Assembly (NCBI GenBank): GCA_000004985.1
Contig: GG739008.1
Source: Naegleria gruberi
Taxonomy: Eukaryota
DNA length: 11,584 nt
Strand: one strand, 5' to 3'
Positions within the stretch are counted from its first letter, which is position 1. Each line of letters begins with the position of its first letter. The translations under genes and the position numbers were made by a program. The notes beneath the pieces were generated by a model. It saw only the letters and a program-made list of their open reading frames with translations. It had not been told where the DNA came from and searched no databases. Shown here one piece after another: positions 407 to 10,870 of the stretch.

Positions 407-526
407 AATACTACCATTACACCAAAATAATAGTTCACGTAGAAACAGCTTTTGATGATGCTAAAGAAATAAGATAAACATCATGTTAAAATTCATTAAG
501 GGAATATTTTCATAATGAATAAGATT

Positions 527-598
527 CCCGTGTAGTCCAATGGCTAGGATACCTGGCTTTCACCCAGGAGGTCCGGGTTCAATTCCCGGCATGGGAGA
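527..598 (+). tRNA. tRNA-Glu, anticodon TTC (UUC). 72 nt, no encoded CCA.
   Basis: The cloverleaf was read directly. Acceptor TCCCGTG/CATGGGA has one G-U pair, discriminator G. D-stem GTCC/GGAT. Anticodon stem CCTGG/CCAGG with loop CTTTCAC. T-stem CCGGG/CCCGG with loop TTCAATT. The B-box-like GGTTCAATTCC is present and a T-run (tttt) lies about 5 nt downstream. Confidence 0.9.
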
Positions 599-1097: not shown

Positions 1098-3382
1098 NNN
1101 NNNNNNNNNNNNNNNNNNNNNNNNNNNNNNNNNNNNNNNNNNNNNNNNNNNNNNNNNNNNNNNNNNNNNNNNNNNNNNNNNNNNNNNNNNNNNNNNNNNN
1201 NNNNNNNNNNNNNNNNNNNNNNNNNNNNNNNNNNNNNNNNNNNNNNNNNNNNNNNNNNNNNNNNNNNNNNNNNNNNNNNNNNNNNNNNNNNNNNNNNNNN
1301 NNNNNNNNNNNNNNNNNNNNNNNNNNNNNNNNNNNNNNNNNNNNNNNNNNNNNNNNNNNNNNNNNNNNNNNNNNNNNNNNNNNNNNNNNNNNNNNNNNNN
1401 NNNNNNNNNNNNNNNNNNNNNNNNNNNNNNNNNNNNNNNNNNNNNNNNNNNNNNNNNNNNNNNNNNNNNNNNNNNNNNNNNNNNNNNNNNNNNNNNNNNN
1501 NNNNNNNNNNNNNNNNNNNNNNNNNNNNNNNNNNNNNNNNNNNNNNNNNNNNNNNNNNNNNNNNNNNNNNNNNNNNNNNNNNNNNNNNNNNNNNNNNNNN
1601 NNNNNNNNNNNNNNNNNNNNNNNNNNNNNNNNNNNNNNNNNNNNNNNNNNNNNNNNNNNNNNNNNNNNNNNNNNNNNNNNNNNNNNNNNNNNNNNNNNNN
1701 NNNNNNNNNNNNNNNNNNNNNNNNNNNNNNNNNNNNNNNNNNNNNNNNNNNNNNNNNNNNNNNNNNNNNNNNNNNNNNNNNNNNNNNNNNNNNNNNNNNN
1801 NNNNNNNNNNNNNNNNNNNNNNNNNNNNNNNNNNNNNNNNNNNNNNNNNNNNNNNNNNNNNNNNNNNNNNNNNNNNNNNNNNNNNNNNNNNNNNNNNNNN
1901 NNNNNNNNNNNNNNNNNNNNNNNNNNNNNNNNNNNNNNNNNNNNNNNNNNNNNNNNNNNNNNNNNNNNNNNNNNNNNNNNNNNNNNNNNNNNNNNNNNNN
2001 NNNNNNNNNNNNNNNNNNNNNNNNNNNNNNNNNNNNNNNNNNNNNNNNNNNNNNNNNNNNNNNNNNNNNNNNNNNNNNNNNNNNNNNNNNNNNNNNNNNN
2101 NNNNNNNNNNNNNNNNNNNNNNNNNNNNNNNNNNNNNNNNNNNNNNNNNNNNNNNNNNNNNNNNNNNNNNNNNNNNNNNNNNNNNNNNNNNNNNNNNNNN
2201 NNNNNNNNNNNNNNNNNNNNNNNNNNNNNNNNNNNNNNNNNNNNNNNNNNNNNNNNNNNNNNNNNNNNNNNNNNNNNNNNNNNNNNNNNNNNNNNNNNNN
2301 NNNNNNNNNNNNNNNNNNNNNNNNNNNNNNNNNNNNNNNNNNNNNNNNNNNNNNNNNNNNNNNNNNNNNNNNNNNNNNNNNNNNNNNNNNNNNNNNNNNN
2401 NNNNNNNNNNNNNNNNNNNNNNNNNNNNNNNNNNNNNNNNNNNNNNNNNNNNNNNNNNNNNNNNNNNNNNNNNNNNNNNNNNNNNNNNNNNNNNNNNNNN
2501 NNNNNNNNNNNNNNNNNNNNNNNNNNNNNNNNNNNNNNNNNNNNNNNNNNNNNNNNNNNNNNNNNNNNNNNNNNNNNNNNNNNNNNNNNNNNNNNNNNNN
2601 NNNNNNNNNNNNNNNNNNNNNNNNNNNNNNNNNNNNNNNNNNNNNNNNNNNNNNNNNNNNNNNNNNNNNNNNNNNNNNNNNNNNNNNNNNNNNNNNNNNN
2701 NNNNNNNNNNNNNNNNNNNNNNNNNNNNNNNNNNNNNNNNNNNNNNNNNNNNNNNNNNNNNNNNNNNNNNNNNNNNNNNNNNNNNNNNNNNNNNNNNNNN
2801 NNNNNNNNNNNNNNNNNNNNNNNNNNNNNNNNNNNNNNNNNNNNNNNNNNNNNNNNNNNNNNNNNNNNNNNNNNNNNNNNNNNNNNNNNNNNNNNNNNNN
2901 NNNNNNNNNNNNNNNNNNNNNNNNNNNNNNNNNNNNNNNNNNNNNNNNNNNNNNNNNNNNNNNNNNNNNNNNNNNNNNNNNNNNNNNNNNNNNNNNNNNN
3001 NNNNNNNNNNNNNNNNNNNNNNNNNNNNNNNNNNNNNNNNNNNNNNNNNNNNNNNNNNNNNNNNNNNNNNNNNNNNNNNNNNNNNNNNNNNNNNNNNNNN
3101 NNNNNNNNNNNNNNNNNNNNNNNNNNNNNNNNNNNNNNNNNNNNNNNNNNNNNNNNNNNNNNNNNNNNNNNNNNNNNNNNNNNNNNNNNNNNNNNNNNNN
3201 NNNNNNNNNNNNNNNNNNNNNNNNNNNNNNNNNNNNNNNNNNNNNNNNNNNNNNNNNNNNNNNNNNNNNNNNNNNNNNNNNNNNNNNNNNNNNNNNNNNN
3301 NNNNNNNNNNNNNNNNNNNNNNNNNNNNNNNNNNNNNNNNNNNNNNNNNNNNNNNNNNNNNNNNNNNNNNNNNNNNNNNNNN
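1098..3382. other. Assembly gap, 2285 N. All ORF-track translations across it are artifacts.
   Basis: An uninterrupted run of n. Confidence 1.
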
Positions 3383-4027: not shown

Positions 4028-4108
4028 CGCAGACTGCAGGATTCGAACCTACGAAGGTTTCCCCAACAGATTTCAAGTCTGTCGCCTTAACCACTCGGCC
4101 AAGTCTGC
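4028..4108 (-). tRNA. tRNA-Ser, anticodon TGA (UGA). 81 nt with a long variable arm.
   Basis: The reverse complement reads GCAGACT TG GCCGAGTGGTTAAGGCG ACAGA CTTGAAA TCTGT TGGGGAAACCTTCGTA GGTTCGAATCC TGC AGTCTGC G. Acceptor GCAGACT/AGTCTGC. Anticodon loop CTTGAAA. The B box GGTTCGAATCC is perfect. A T-run follows downstream on the minus strand. Confidence 0.9.
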
Positions 4109-4353: not shown

Positions 4354-4944
4354 GTCTTCTTTTTGAGAGATGCTGTAAAGTCGTGGGAAGAAAAGAGTGG
4401 ACAAAAAGCTTCCGAAGCTGAACAAGTATTATTATATGGATGGGTTCCTCCAATTGAAAAGATGGACACTACTGTGTCTCAAATGAAAAATTGTAAAAGA
4501 TTAGCTCTCTCAACAAATTGTATAGACAGAATTGGTGGTTTGCAAGGATTGGTATCTTTGGAAATTTTATCACTGGCTAGAAATCAAATCAAGAGATTGG
4601 AAAATCTTGACGCTGTTGCACCAACTTTGGAACAATTGTGGTTGTCTTATAATAACTTGACATCATTAGCTGGTGTTGAAAAATTGAAGAAACTCAAAGT
4701 ATTATATTGTGGAAATAACAAGATTAGTTCTTGGTCTGAAATTGACAGACTGAAAGATCTCCCTGACTTGGAAGAAATTTTACTGACAGGTAATCCATTG
4801 GAAAAGAATACTAAGGATGCAGGTGAAAATTGGAGAATTGAAGTATTGAGAAGATTACCATCGTTAAAGAAACTGGACGGAAGACCATTTGATTTGGCAG
4901 AAAGAGAACAAGCTGAAGGTGTCAGAAAGGATATGGGCGAATAA
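4354..4944 (+). CDS. DNAL1: Dynein light chain 1, axonemal (LC1; leucine-rich repeat protein), main exon. Stop TAA at 4942-4944.
   Basis: ..SWEEKSGQKASEAEQVLLYGWVPPIEKMDTTVSQMKNCKRLALSTNCIDRI..LSLARNQIKRLENLDAV..TLEQLWLSYNNL..KLKVLYCGNNKISSW.EIDRL..LPDLEEILLTGNPLE...WRIEVLRRLPSLKKLDGRPF. This is colinear with human DNAL1 over its whole ~190 aa (WEEKTGQ..SEA, PPIEKMD, LSLSTNCIEKI, LSLGRN.I, LEELW.SYN, LKILY.SNN, GNPLEE, KLKKLDG). Confidence 0.85.
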   Translation, partial: VFFLRDAVKSWEEKSGQKASEAEQVLLYGWVPPIEKMDTTVSQMKNCKRLALSTNCIDRIGGLQGLVSLEILSLARNQIKRLENLDAVAPTLEQLWLSYNNLTSLAGVEKLKKLKVLYCGNNKISSWSEIDRLKDLPDLEEILLTGNPLEKNTKDAGENWRIEVLRRLPSLKKLDGRPFDLAEREQAEGVRKDMGE

Positions 4945-5930: not shown

Positions 5931-7661
5931 ATGGAAAATTCGTATCAAAGTACTGCTGATTCAACTTCATCACCTGCAATTATAATTCCTCCTCTTGCTG
6001 GCCTTTCCTCTGTCAATCAAACAGATGACAATCAAGAAGTGCAGAATAATATTGCCTATCAATCACCAGGTAGCGAACCTTCCTCTCCAACCGGTCCTCC
6101 TTCCAAAAAGAAACCAAAACTATTGTGTGGCTGTATTCGAACTGATAGATATTTGGGTTTTATTGAACTGAAACCTGGTATTACGTGGGTTCATATTACT
6201 TGTTTCTATATTTTGGTTGTCATTTTGCTTAGTATGTTCGTATTTATTAATGCCATGTCAAGTTATGTTTTCGAAGCTTATCTGAGAGGTACTGTAAATA
6301 GAAAAGATCAAGGTAAATTGGCTGGTGACTTGTCGTTTTACAATGAATTGTGCATTTTGGCATTTGGCTTGATTTGGGGCGTGCTGACTGATATTTTGAG
6401 AGGTAGAAAGTTTGTGTACATGATTGGTTTCTTATTTATGGGAATTGGATTGTTCCTCTATACATTTGCTGAAACTATTTGGCAATTGATAATCTACAGA
6501 ATTATTTTTGCTATTGGTGCTGCCAGTACAAGTAGTATGTTAACTGCCATTGTTGGTGACTATGTCAAGAATAAGGATAGAGGTAAAGCATCTGGTTTGT
6601 TGGGATTGGCATCTGGTCTTGGTGCTGTTGTCTCTGCTTTGGCTTGTTTAAAGATTCCATTATGGATTCAAAGTGCTGATCCAACCATTTCAACAGGTCA
6701 AGCAGGTATGATTGCCTTTATGATTATGGCCTTCTTCTGTATTATTGCCATGTGTGCCTTAATGATCTTCTTCAAGGGAAGAATTTTCCCAATTTGTGAC
6801 TCTAAACAAGAACGTGAAGCAACCAGAAGAGAAATGGCTGAAAGTAGCGATTGTGAAGAAGAGGATGATGAAGAAAGATTCAACATTAAGAAATCCTTCA
6901 TCAGATTCAAAAATATCATTTGGGAAGGTTTATTTGTTGCTCCAGCAAAGAGACCATCTCTCATTCTTGCCTACATTTCTGGTTTCGTTGCTAGAGGTGA
7001 CTCTATTCTCATTACCACCTTTATTACATTGTGGGTCTCTCAACAAATGATTGACATTCATGATTCATCCAAGGCAGATGCTACTGCTAGAGGTGGTACT
7101 ATTTCTGGTATTTGTCAAACTTTTGCTCTCATTGCTGCTCCATTTGTTGGTATTTTTGCTGACTTGAGATTTAGAAGAAAGAAGAATCAAGATGTTGAAC
7201 AACAACCTGAACAAGAGGATGATTTCAAGACTGATTTTGTTAGAAAAATGTCGAGATTGATTGTTATGGCAATTGTCTCTGCAATTTCAGGTGTTGGTTA
7301 TACCATGTTATCTTTCCTCACTGATGTCACTGGTGGTTTTGTCTATTTACCAATTGCATTGATTGGTATTGGTGAAATTGGTGTCATTATTTGTTCTCAA
7401 ATCCTTGTCACTGCTGAATCACCAAGTAAGGTCAGAGGTAGCGTCAGTGGTATCTTTACTCTCTTTGGTGCTGCTGGTATTTTAGTGGCCACAAAGGTTG
7501 GTGGATATTTATTCGATGATTGGAAACCAAGTGGTCCATTCCTTTTCTATGGAGTTCTCAATTTTGCATTATTTATTATTTCTATCGGTTTCATTATTGC
7601 CCATGTTATTTACAGGTTCAAGGTTGGTAGAAACTCCAATAAAGGAGTTGACCTTAAGTAA
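5931..7661 (+). CDS. Major facilitator superfamily (MFS) transporter, 576 aa, intronless.
   Basis: An ATG-initiated ORF. About 12 hydrophobic segments fall into two bundles separated by a charged central loop (EREATRREMAESSDCEEEDDEERFNIKK). MFS motif A lies between TM2 and TM3 (GVLTDILRGRKF) and a second copy in the C-terminal half (GIFADLRFRRKK). The N-terminus is Ser/Pro-rich low complexity. Confidence 0.75.
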   Translation: MENSYQSTADSTSSPAIIIPPLAGLSSVNQTDDNQEVQNNIAYQSPGSEPSSPTGPPSKKKPKLLCGCIRTDRYLGFIELKPGITWVHITCFYILVVILLSMFVFINAMSSYVFEAYLRGTVNRKDQGKLAGDLSFYNELCILAFGLIWGVLTDILRGRKFVYMIGFLFMGIGLFLYTFAETIWQLIIYRIIFAIGAASTSSMLTAIVGDYVKNKDRGKASGLLGLASGLGAVVSALACLKIPLWIQSADPTISTGQAGMIAFMIMAFFCIIAMCALMIFFKGRIFPICDSKQEREATRREMAESSDCEEEDDEERFNIKKSFIRFKNIIWEGLFVAPAKRPSLILAYISGFVARGDSILITTFITLWVSQQMIDIHDSSKADATARGGTISGICQTFALIAAPFVGIFADLRFRRKKNQDVEQQPEQEDDFKTDFVRKMSRLIVMAIVSAISGVGYTMLSFLTDVTGGFVYLPIALIGIGEIGVIICSQILVTAESPSKVRGSVSGIFTLFGAAGILVATKVGGYLFDDWKPSGPFLFYGVLNFALFIISIGFIIAHVIYRFKVGRNSNKGVDLK

Positions 7662-7744
7662 AAACATAAAATTAACTTATTGAATCAAAATATCTTCTTT
7701 CACGTTATTTAACTCATATACTTATTAATAAGGGGTCAATTCAA

Positions 7745-8071
7745 TCAAACATTAGAATTTTCTGTTGGAATTGTTTGAGCTTTTTTAAACAATGATTTTT
7801 TCCTTCCAGAAGAAGTTTCACTCTGATTATTCAATTCTTTCACTGCTCTTGCAGATTCTGTAAATATTGGCTGATATAATAGAACAGTTACAATTCCAAA
7901 TGTTAAAATTCCAGCAGAATTGATGAAATTATAGAACAGTGTCATGTAACTCCAGTCATCCAAAGCTGTGGCACAACCGATCGCGATGATTTGTGACAGA
8001 GCAGAAAAAACAAGAGCCAACTGCAGTGTAATAACCTTAATGATTGGTCTTTGTGATTGTTGTTTGTTTGT
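7745..8071 (-). CDS. Unidentified multi-pass membrane protein, putative exon 2. Stop TGA at 7745-7747.
   Basis: An open frame (TNKQQSQRPIIKVITLQLALVFSALSQIIAIGCATALDDWSYMTLFYNFINSAGILTFGIVTVLLYQPIF...) with two or three hydrophobic helices. The in-frame acceptor ..caactaAG| at 8073-8072 precedes it. It is joined in frame to the upstream exon through the GTAAGT donor. Confidence 0.45.
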   Translation of the reverse strand, partial: TNKQQSQRPIIKVITLQLALVFSALSQIIAIGCATALDDWSYMTLFYNFINSAGILTFGIVTVLLYQPIFTESARAVKELNNQSETSSGRKKSLFKKAQTIPTENSNV

Positions 8072-8166
8072 CTTAGTTGCTCTTGTTTTAATTGTTTTCA
8101 AAACCTTGAAAGCAACAATCTTCATATTTCGAATAAATTTTTCTCCAATGAAAACTTTAAACTTAC

Positions 8167-8495
8167 CATTGAAATGACCAAATTAATGACAATCTGCAAA
8201 AAGTAAATAATATATCCAATCATAAATAGCAGAAACTGATAATCCTCAATAAACTGAATCTTGATGAAAAAGAAAAGCACTGCAATAGCCACAACAATCG
8301 AACCAAACGAAACACAGAAAAAAATAGTGAATGAATTCTGGATAATCATGAGTCGTTTGGTTAGTCGTGAGTTTGCCTCTTCGAAACTTCCTGCAATCTT
8401 GACAGTTTCTAGAAAGACATGTCCTACAAAGCTCATGATTACAANCATTGTAATGAGATTTCCAACAATGAAAAGAACTTCAATTGAACCTGTGA
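8167..8495 (-). CDS. Unidentified multi-pass membrane protein, putative exon 1, partial. It continues 5' into the 206-N gap and ends at ..ISM followed by donor GTAAGT.
   Basis: On the minus strand the frame is open from the gap edge: TGSIEVLFIVGNLITMxVIMSFVGHVFLETVKIAGSFEEANSRLTKRLMIIQNSFTIFFCVSFGSIVVAIAVLFFFIKIQFIEDYQFLLFMIGYIIYFLQIVINLVISM. It contains several hydrophobic helices. The sequence tcaATG|GTAAGTttaaag lies at 8169-8161. Unspliced, the frame hits a stop 45 nt later. The single n at 8445 causes the X. Confidence 0.45.
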
Positions 8496-8701
8496 NNNNN
8501 NNNNNNNNNNNNNNNNNNNNNNNNNNNNNNNNNNNNNNNNNNNNNNNNNNNNNNNNNNNNNNNNNNNNNNNNNNNNNNNNNNNNNNNNNNNNNNNNNNNN
8601 NNNNNNNNNNNNNNNNNNNNNNNNNNNNNNNNNNNNNNNNNNNNNNNNNNNNNNNNNNNNNNNNNNNNNNNNNNNNNNNNNNNNNNNNNNNNNNNNNNNN
8701 N
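8496..8701. other. Assembly gap, 206 N, inside the minus-strand membrane-protein gene.
   Basis: A run of n. Confidence 1.
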
Positions 8702-8719
8702 TTGTTTGAAAGGTGGCAT
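8702..8719 (-). CDS. Candidate start (MPPFKQ..) of the gap-interrupted membrane-protein gene. Tentative.
   Basis: The minus-strand ATG at 8719-8717 opens a frame into the gap. The ORF-track 'M' further upstream at 8770 is TTG. Frame continuity across the gap cannot be tested. Confidence 0.25.
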
Positions 8720-8948
8720 TTCTTTTTGAGATTTGAAATGATAAGAGATAGAACTAATAATCAAAGGCAATTGTTGAGAGATATATCATAAACAATTAGG
8801 CATCAGCAATCATCAGTATTAAAAAGAAACACCCTTCGCTTTTTCCAACTTTAAGAATTTCCATTTTTAAGGTTCATAAAAACAACAATTTTTTTAATTT
8901 ATTTGTTTTTTTCATATGAAAAAATTGTAAATTTCAATACAGCACGTT

Positions 8949-8973
8949 TACTTCAAGTTTGACAAGATTTGGG
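8949..8973. repeat. Left terminal inverted repeat (25 bp) of a MITE-like element.
   Basis: acagcacgtttacttcaagtttgac is the reverse complement (24/25) of 9311-9335. Confidence 0.7.
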
Positions 8974-9310
8974 GAAATTAAAATTGTTTTTTTTAAAATT
9001 TAAAGTATTTCATCTTTCAATTTTGATTTGGCAAGTAAACTCAACTCCATTTGAAAAGAATCTGTAACGATAATATTTTATTCAACAAAATGCTAATTTC
9101 TCGATGGAATTAAGGTAGTTTTGAAATCTGACTTCAAATTATGAATCCTCGCATTGACATACCCCTTGGGGTGGCAGCATTCTCAAAAATATGTAGAAAT
9201 GAGTAAGAACGAGTTGTTAGGTGTTGTTCTATTGAAATGCTTATTTTGGATTTGACAGCAGAAGAACAACAAAATTTTTTCTAAATAATTTATTTTCTTT
9301 CAAAAAACGC

Positions 9311-9335
9311 GTCAAATTTGAAGTAAACGTGCTGT
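9311..9335. repeat. Right terminal inverted repeat (25 bp) of a MITE-like element.
   Basis: gtcaaatttgaagtaaacgtgctgt has reverse complement acagcacgtttacttcaaatttgac. Confidence 0.7.
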
Positions 9336-9414
9336 AATTAGCGATTAAACATTTAATTTCATAACATTTCAATTTTCAAATTCTGTAAAATTTCCCAAAT
9401 TGATTGAAAAAAAA

Positions 9415-10194
9415 ATGGCTTCACAAATTTGCTCGCAAATGGGCAAACTTTCAATTGCTAAAGTTTTGGAGGGAACCCTCGGAAATCATGGCTTTAAAAT
9501 CATGTATCGATCCATCAATAAGAATACATTCATTTCTCCGTGGCATGATATTCCACTTCAAGCAAGTGCTAATCATTACTATTTTGTTAATGAAATTCCA
9601 ATGCACACTCTGAAAAAGATGGAAGTCAATACAAAGGAGCAATTTAATCCAATAATTCAAGATGAAAAGAAGGGAAAACTCAGAGAATTTACTTATAGAC
9701 TTGATGCTGGTGGAATTCCTTTCAATTACGGAATGCTTCCTCAAACTTGGGAAGATCCAAAGAAATTAATTCATGTTCCTTTTGGACAAGTTAAGGATGG
9801 TGTTTATCAACCAACTGTTGCTGTTCAAGGTGATAATGATCCAATTGATGTTGTGGAAATTAGTGATGTTGCTTTGGAAATGGGAGAAGTTTATAAAATC
9901 AAAGTTTTTGGAATTCTTGCAATGATTGATGAAGGTGAAATGGATTGGAAAGTTATTGGTAGAGTTGTTTCAGAATCTGAAACCTCAACACTACAACCAG
10001 ATGAAGATTTACAGGACATTTATGATATTCCAAAGGGAAAGATTAATGATATCATTGATTGGTTTAGAATGTACAAGACTACCGATGGAAAACCTGAAAA
10101 TCATTTTGGATTCAATACCACAGTGTTAGATAAGGCCTATGCTAAACACATTATCAACCAAACTCACAAACATTGGAGTGCTATGTCAAAATAA
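9415..10194 (+). CDS. PPA1: Inorganic pyrophosphatase, soluble family I eukaryotic type, 259 aa. Stop TAA.
   Basis: SPWHDIPL, FVNEIP, KKMEV, NPIIQDEKKGKLR, YGMLPQTWEDP, GDNDPIDVVEI, GILAMIDEGEMDWKV, WFRMYKTTDGKPEN.FGF. This is colinear with yeast IPP1/PPA1 and keeps all the key Asp/Glu/Lys/Arg/Tyr active-site positions. The real start is ATG 9415-9417. The ORF-track start at 9400 is TTG. Confidence 0.9.
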   Translation: MASQICSQMGKLSIAKVLEGTLGNHGFKIMYRSINKNTFISPWHDIPLQASANHYYFVNEIPMHTLKKMEVNTKEQFNPIIQDEKKGKLREFTYRLDAGGIPFNYGMLPQTWEDPKKLIHVPFGQVKDGVYQPTVAVQGDNDPIDVVEISDVALEMGEVYKIKVFGILAMIDEGEMDWKVIGRVVSESETSTLQPDEDLQDIYDIPKGKINDIIDWFRMYKTTDGKPENHFGFNTTVLDKAYAKHIINQTHKHWSAMSK

Positions 10195-10323
10195 ATTCAA
10201 CCTTTTTCAATCTTCCAATATCCAAATTGACTGGTAAAACACTTGCTAGAATTTCTTGGAGATGAACAAAAATCAACAAGAATAATGATTTTAAATAATT
10301 TTTTTTATAGTTTGGAAAGAAGT

Positions 10324-10770
10324 TTAAGCAGTGAGTTCGCAGACACCACCAATAGCCTTGATCTTTTCTTCAGCAGACTTGGAGAAGAGTCTAGCTCTGA
10401 CGACGATTGGGATCTTTGGCAAGTCACCTCTACCCATGATCTTGTCGAAACCAGCCTTGTGAGCATCAATAACGACAGCCTTACCACCGAATTTACCTTC
10501 CTTGGCTTGTTGGTAGACTTCTTGTCCGGCAACCTTCCACAATTCGTCAACATTGAGACAATTTGTCAAGAAGTGATTCTTATTCATGTGGAATCTTCTG
10601 ATACCGATCTTACCGAAATAACCAGGATGGAATCTGTCAACCCAGATTCTGTGATGGTGTTGACCACCAGCCATACCACGACCACCAGGGTGCTTTCTGT
10701 GCTTACCGATACGACCGTGACCGTGAGAGACGTGACCTCTCATCTTTCTACACTTCTTCTTAGTTGTGGC
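10324..10770 (-). CDS. RPL27A: 60S ribosomal protein L27a (uL15), exon 2. Stop TAA at 10324-10326.
   Basis: [42 protein letters not shown]...[12 protein letters not shown]...N. This matches the L27a/uL15 N-terminus ([29 protein letters not shown]) and the rest of the protein. The frame is closed by TAG at 10773-10771, directly upstream of the acceptor ttatAG|GCC. Codon usage is strongly biased (GGT, AAG, CAC, GTC, AGA), as expected for a highly expressed gene. Confidence 0.85.
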
Positions 10771-10870
10771 CTATAATATGTTCAAGAGTAAGTAAATAAT
10801 TCATACCAAGCAAGTATTAATTAGAAAAGAGAAGGTAAATATTTTTTAAGAGAGTGACTGCAGTACGTAC

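Follow-up and report, generated by a model that had tools for sequence, protein, structure and literature searches.

Positions 8940–9334 (or 8939–9335) of a Naegleria gruberi scaffold that is complete at 11,584 bp and is called the window here are moderately likely to be a MITE-type non-autonomous cut-and-paste DNA transposon that inserted in the N. gruberi lineage. This reading follows from near-identical terminal inverted repeats, degenerate symmetry just inside them and a direct duplication placed exactly at the boundaries, as well as from the small, non-coding, AT-rich body, the gene-proximal position and the occurrence in one lineage only. Against this reading, only one copy has been seen, in the window, and a duplication of 2–3 bp is expected by chance in 4–11% of cases. 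In addition, the classified transposable-element content of N. gruberi is 0.28% (bioRxiv 10.64898/2026.06.24.734286), and an abundant family is accordingly less probable a priori. The first-pass annotation had described the unit as a MITE-like element; the anatomy that it described (short, non-coding and AT-rich, with near-perfect terminal repeats and a short duplication) was borne out, whereas its assignment to the PIF/Harbinger superfamily was not (see below).

The left terminal inverted repeat (ACAGCACGTTTACTTCAAGTTTGAC) is located at 8939–8963 on the plus strand, and the right one (GTCAAATTTGAAGTAAACGTGCTGT; reverse complement ACAGCACGTTTACTTCAAATTTGAC) at 9311–9335 on the minus strand. 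The two arms pair over 25 bp with 24 complementary positions, as annotated originally; the right arm had been positioned exactly, whereas the left arm had been placed at 8949–8973, which is 10 bases too far right. The unit, previously given as 387 bp, is 397 bp in length (8939–9335), or 395 bp (8940–9334) if the TA reading of its boundaries (see below) is adopted. Pairing of T8938 with A9336 lengthens the stem to 26 bp with one mismatch (25/26); a 26-bp repeat had been proposed earlier as an alternative to a flanking duplication.

In ungapped scoring (+1/−3), the arm pair has an inverted-repeat score of 22 (highest value among 200 dinucleotide shuffles, 16) and is the sole inverted repeat scoring at least 14 within 3 kb across the window. 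This threshold was reached by no inverted repeat in the syntenic DNA of N. fowleri, W. magna and an environmental relative (27 kb examined). A search of the window for the terminal-repeat 24-mer, allowing up to three mismatches, recovered both arms only, and two matches were obtained in none of 200 shuffles. The symmetry extends inward in a weaker form: in the subterminal 38 nt next inside the 26-bp stem, 20 of 38 positions are complementary, compared with 11.0 ± 3.0 expected for random pairs in local intergenic DNA (p = 0.003, which is optimistic because the stretch was chosen by the repeat finder). No palindromy was seen deeper in the interior than this degenerate stretch.

Two other short sequence relationships were noted within and around the unit. 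The interior contains, at 9131–9140, one further copy of a 10-nt core of the terminal repeat (ACTTCAAATT); it is too short to interpret, and could be a remnant of an internal transposase-binding site or a chance match. Also, a 13-nt sequence just inside the left repeat (ATTTGGGGAAATT; 8967–8979) is 85% complementary to AAATTTCCCAAAT at 9388–9400, which is located outside the element and 15 bp upstream of the pyrophosphatase ATG. This complementarity is probably due to chance in AT-rich DNA. An assembly artifact was considered as a source of the inverted repeat and rejected, as the repeat is short, its arms differ by one base, the gene order is the same as in relatives, and the repeat is embedded in continuous sequence with the nearest gap 237 bp away.

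The interior of the unit (8964–9310; 347 bp) is non-coding and has a GC content of 28.5%, compared with 29.9% for the whole element and 19–24% for the immediate flanks. In agreement with the earlier description of this DNA as AT-rich, ORF-free and unlike any gene, the longest ORF lying wholly inside the element encodes 33 aa, and one 43-aa ORF spans the right end. The concatenated six-frame translation of the element gave no match at E ≤ 10 among 5.8 billion proteins, and an Rfam search of 8720–9420 at a permissive E-value returned sub-threshold noise only, with no family. Folded as single-stranded DNA, the unit is somewhat more stable than its shuffles (z = −3.5), and its centroid fold consists essentially of the terminal stem plus two short hairpins in the interior, the 345-nt 'loop' being without persistent structure. 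The predicted ensemble stability of the terminal stem alone points to terminal repeats rather than to a folded RNA.

The unit lies between two divergently oriented genes, as had been annotated. The gene on the right encodes a family I inorganic pyrophosphatase (9415–10194, plus strand; Pfam PF00719, E = 3.8e-37) that is 100% identical to an NCBI N. gruberi protein. Its ATG at 9415 agrees with the N-termini of the relatives (MASQ... in an environmental Naegleria-like contig, L003, and MSSQ... in N. fowleri), and the right end of the element is 79 bp from this ATG. The gene on the left (7745–8719, minus strand) encodes a membrane protein and has a putative start ATG at 8719. It is seen as two ORFs in different frames, with no Pfam match and no match in a word-indexed protein search; its reading as an orphan or a pseudogene was overturned by an exhaustive HMMER search and a splice model. 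The HMMER search revealed an uncharacterized family of multi-pass membrane proteins (best E = 1.7e-12). Every named member comes from Naegleria, among them proteins of N. lovaniensis (C9374_000526) and the N. gruberi paralog EFC43405.1, and environmental sequences also belong to the family. In tblastn searches, both ORFs correspond to consecutive parts of the family proteins, and the frame is restored by a 47-nt GTAAGT...AG intron at 8120–8166 with spacing as in the homologs; in the correct frames, the codon scores are positive but weak. On this evidence, 7745–8719 holds a genuine gene, one that belongs to a Naegleria-specific membrane-protein family and for which the public proteome apparently has no model. 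The 5′ part of this gene is lost in an assembly gap (8496–8701), which is abutted by the ATG at 8719. Homologs carry about 145–195 residues N-terminal to the part that starts at 8490, whereas the interval from 8490 to the ATG fits only about 75 codons, provided that the 206-N gap is sized correctly; the homologs thus imply that more N-terminal residues are encoded than would fit into a gap of the stated size.

The gene content of the scaffold is eukaryotic. In addition to the two genes above, the scaffold contains a kinase C-terminus (35–406), genes for tRNA-Glu(TTC) (525–598, plus strand) and tRNA-Ser(TGA) (4028–4108, minus strand), a leucine-rich-repeat protein gene (4363–4944), an MFS transporter gene (5931–7661) and the gene for ribosomal protein L27a (10324–10743, minus strand). 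Both tRNA genes were detected by ARAGORN and by Rfam, and are nuclear genes located among protein-coding genes. Runs of N at 1098–3382, 8445 and 8496–8701 look like assembly gaps, and the 2,285-N gap splits a large minus-strand gene of which the C-terminal membrane segment is located at 742–1097. L27a has 139 aa here, compared with 149 aa in the N. fowleri and Willaertia models; in conjunction with the start of the ORF, this difference makes it likely that a short first exon, followed by a 5′ intron, is present upstream of 10743. A 177-aa plus-strand ORF at 10243–10776 is an antisense shadow of L27a, having a negative codon score in its own frame and a positive score on the opposite strand.

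The corresponding pyrophosphatase loci were compared in N. fowleri (L001 and L002), W. magna (L015) and the 2-kb environmental contig (L003), in which the pyrophosphatase proteins are 72, 72 and 77% identical to that of N. gruberi, respectively. The order of the genes for the leucine-rich-repeat protein, MFS transporter, pyrophosphatase and L27a (minus strand) is kept in the two long loci, and the environmental contig contains the end of the MFS gene, the pyrophosphatase gene and the L27a gene in the same order as elsewhere. The lengths upstream of the pyrophosphatase gene are 217 bp in N. fowleri, 581 bp in W. magna and 138 bp in the environmental contig. What separates the MFS transporter gene from the pyrophosphatase gene differs among these organisms: this slot is empty in the environmental contig (L003 188–324; 138 bp), contains only a doubtful 69-aa call in Willaertia (L015 5420–6000; 581 bp) and in N. 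fowleri (L001 4139–6000) is occupied by an unrelated plus-strand gene for a 489-aa serine/threonine-rich product, whereas in N. gruberi (7662–9414) it contains the minus-strand membrane-protein gene and the inverted-repeat unit. This slot is a hotspot of lineage-specific content in Heterolobosea, with the flanking gene order kept throughout.

No inverted repeat of at least 16 nt was detected upstream of the pyrophosphatase gene in the three relatives, and two weak ones are located inside the N. fowleri gene; a BLASTN comparison of the element with the two N. fowleri loci gave short AT-rich matches only, and in none of the three relatives was similarity to the element seen. The unit is missing from the slot in all three relatives, which are too distant for alignment to an empty site and have only an A-rich run preceding the ATG in common. 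As it is missing from relatives with the same gene order, the unit is lineage-specific and is not a conserved promoter structure. This eliminates the alternative, raised in the first-pass annotation, that the two arms might be conserved as part of a structured promoter.

At 395–397 bp and with no coding capacity, the unit is within the size range of MITEs (under about 800 bp), and its AT-richness and its position beside genes are likewise typical of them. A MITE family is defined by multiple dispersed copies with different flanks in one genome. No second copy of the element was detected in the 11,584-bp window, where sensitive BLASTN against the rest of the sequence gave short AT-rich matches only. 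The terminal-repeat 24-mer had no match in bacterial and archaeal genomes, and a 22-mer and a two-arm 11 + 11 pattern had none in the JGI metagenomes. The two-arm pattern had a single match in bacterial and archaeal genomes, which is located in Leuconostoc coding DNA, is limited to the 11-mers and is attributed to chance. In viral contigs, which were scanned with a 17-mer only, the 10 matches belong to two phage gene families; none could be extended or had a partner arm, and they are likewise attributed to chance. Naegleria DNA is not expected in any of these collections, so the negative results carry little weight. Neither the terminal-repeat sequence nor a report of MITEs in Naegleria or Heterolobosea was found in the literature searched.

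For the flanking duplication, all symmetric boundaries were analyzed at lengths of 2–10 bp, and only two readings were obtained, a 3-bp AAT and a 2-bp TA, both of which fit the same bases. In the first reading, AAT precedes ACAGCACG...CGTGCTGT and is repeated after it, the element spanning 8939–9335; in the second, TA precedes CAGCACG...CGTGCTG and is repeated after it, the element spanning 8940–9334. The candidate target-site duplication is thus located at 8936–8939 in the left flank, as AAT (8936–8938) or TA (8938–8939), and at 9335–9338 in the right flank, as TA (9335–9336) or AAT (9336–9338). AAT on both sides had been reported previously, with the right copy at its present position but the left copy at 8946–8948 instead of 8936–8938. 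No duplication of 4–10 bp is present at any symmetric boundary, with neither TTAA nor an 8-bp repeat. Given the base composition, the chance probability of a direct repeat is p = 0.035 for 3 bp and p = 0.106 for 2 bp; the duplication, observed in one copy only, supports transposition weakly. With AAT as the true duplication and A as the first base of the repeat, a TA reading would be obtained in any case; if the duplication is TA, the added AAT match is a coincidence of about 4%, as estimated from base frequencies. In addition, TA is palindromic, and the same bases can therefore also be read as a repeat that is 2 bp longer. Because one copy has been seen, the AAT and TA readings are inseparable.

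Target-site duplications of PIF/Harbinger elements are TWA (TAA/TTA), Tourist and PIF termini are G-rich, and termini starting with CAG beside TA are the classical signature of Tc1/mariner/pogo (Stowaway-like) elements. The first-pass annotation had inferred a PIF/Harbinger origin from a TWA-type duplication, an argument that does not hold, as the sole 3-bp duplication is AAT, which is neither TAA nor TTA, and TA with CAG fits equally well. A PIF/Harbinger-derived (Tourist-like) MITE with AAT as its target-site duplication is therefore improbable: even though AAT is directly repeated on both sides and would be matched by chance in only an estimated 4% of cases under the TA reading, the termini (ACAGCACG) appear unlike the G-rich Tourist/PIF termini, and the same bases read as TA followed by CAG..., which is typical of Tc1/mariner/pogo. 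TA is present at both 8938–8939 and 9335–9336, but it carries low information (p = 0.106) and also lengthens the palindrome. Overall, TA with CAG termini favors a Tc1/mariner/pogo (Stowaway-like) origin about as strongly as AAT favors a 3-bp family. Other superfamilies do not fit: hAT, as no 8-bp duplication is present at any symmetric boundary; CACTA (EnSpm; 3-bp duplication and CACTA termini), as the termini here are ACAGC or CAGCA; and Kolobok and piggyBac, as the flanks are AATA and TAAT, not TTAA (PMC9587614).

Explanations that involve no mobile element were also weighed. The main rival, although unlikely, is a unique and non-mobile inverted duplication with neither a transposase nor a family: a 25-bp sequence would have given rise to an inverted copy about 350 bp from itself, for instance when the template was switched as the DNA was replicated or repaired. 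Such an event would have happened in lineage-specific intergenic DNA that came with the membrane-protein gene, and the whole 7662–9414 slot is lineage-specific and variable among relatives, which indicates local rearrangement at this site. Also consistent with this idea are the single known copy, with no true match in the window or the other collections scanned, the low transposable-element content of N. gruberi (bioRxiv 10.64898/2026.06.24.734286) and the fact that a flank match of 2–3 bp may be due to chance. However, the repeats are located exactly at the ends of the unit, weaker inverted symmetry runs inward from them, and a direct duplication is present at the bounds together with CAG beside TA; this combination of features is that of a transposition product and is unexpected from a template switch. 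The remaining candidate, a functional structured intergenic element that regulates the pyrophosphatase or membrane-protein gene through paired inverted protein-binding sites or the stem of a hairpin transcript (e.g., a small-RNA source), is very unlikely. Although the location between divergent genes at 79 bp from the pyrophosphatase ATG, the DNA fold that is stabler than shuffles (z = −3.5) and the complementarity of the 13-nt sequence 8967–8979 to 9388–9400 just upstream of the ATG would suit such a role, the unit is not conserved: the three relatives that have the same gene order lack any inverted repeat upstream of pyrophosphatase. Moreover, there is no Rfam match, the terminal stem alone is stable while the 345-nt 'loop' is without persistent structure, and near-identity over 25 bp is far beyond the needs of transcription-factor sites.

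If the unit is a MITE-type transposon, a DDE transposase encoded elsewhere would bind to the 24–26-bp terminal inverted repeats, cut the unit out and reinsert it with a staggered cut. The target would have been the intergenic DNA between the Naegleria-specific membrane-protein gene and the pyrophosphatase gene, and repair of the staggered cut would duplicate 2 bp (TA) or 3 bp (AAT) of it. As the two arms differ at one position only, the insertion is probably young, or else the arms have been kept alike. With its right end at 79 bp from the ATG, the element makes up most of the DNA upstream of the pyrophosphatase core promoter; a regulatory effect of the element on the neighboring genes is conjecture. 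A more extended proposal, which we offer tentatively and consider possible but doubtful, is that the unit belongs to an undescribed MITE family of Heterolobosea whose transposase, Tc1/mariner/pogo-like or other, is still active in N. gruberi, and that a young copy took the place of the sequence upstream of the core promoter in a housekeeping gene, that for pyrophosphatase, and today plays a part in regulating it.

The element is at most one more example of a well-known kind of transposon, and is ordinary in that respect. If it is confirmed, the sparse repeat catalog of N. gruberi would gain one small DNA-transposon family, and a recent insertion beside a housekeeping gene would be marked. The element would also aid annotation of the genome and could be useful for telling strains apart, with the knowledge of MITEs or of Naegleria biology remaining unchanged. 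The repeats of N. gruberi are mostly unclassified, and include DNA transposons and retrotransposons (PMC12344493).

Kolobok transposons occur in Naegleria (PMC9587614), and the unit is similar to them in having terminal inverted repeats. It differs from them in its AATA and TAAT flanks, as Kolobok elements have TTAA duplications and 5′-RR...YY-3′ termini (PMC9587614). With Tourist-like/PIF-Harbinger MITEs, the unit shares size, the non-coding interior, the terminal inverted repeats and a possible 3-bp duplication; unlike in those elements, the duplication here would be AAT instead of TWA, and the termini appear to differ. Compared with Stowaway-like/Tc1-mariner-pogo MITEs, the unit differs in that its TA is inseparable from a longer repeat and in that a single copy is seen, with no partner transposase and no match of its terminus to the families tested. 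Like those MITEs, it is about 400 bp in length, AT-rich and non-coding, with terminal inverted repeats of 24–26 bp, 5′-CAG termini beside TA on both sides and a gene-proximal intergenic insertion.
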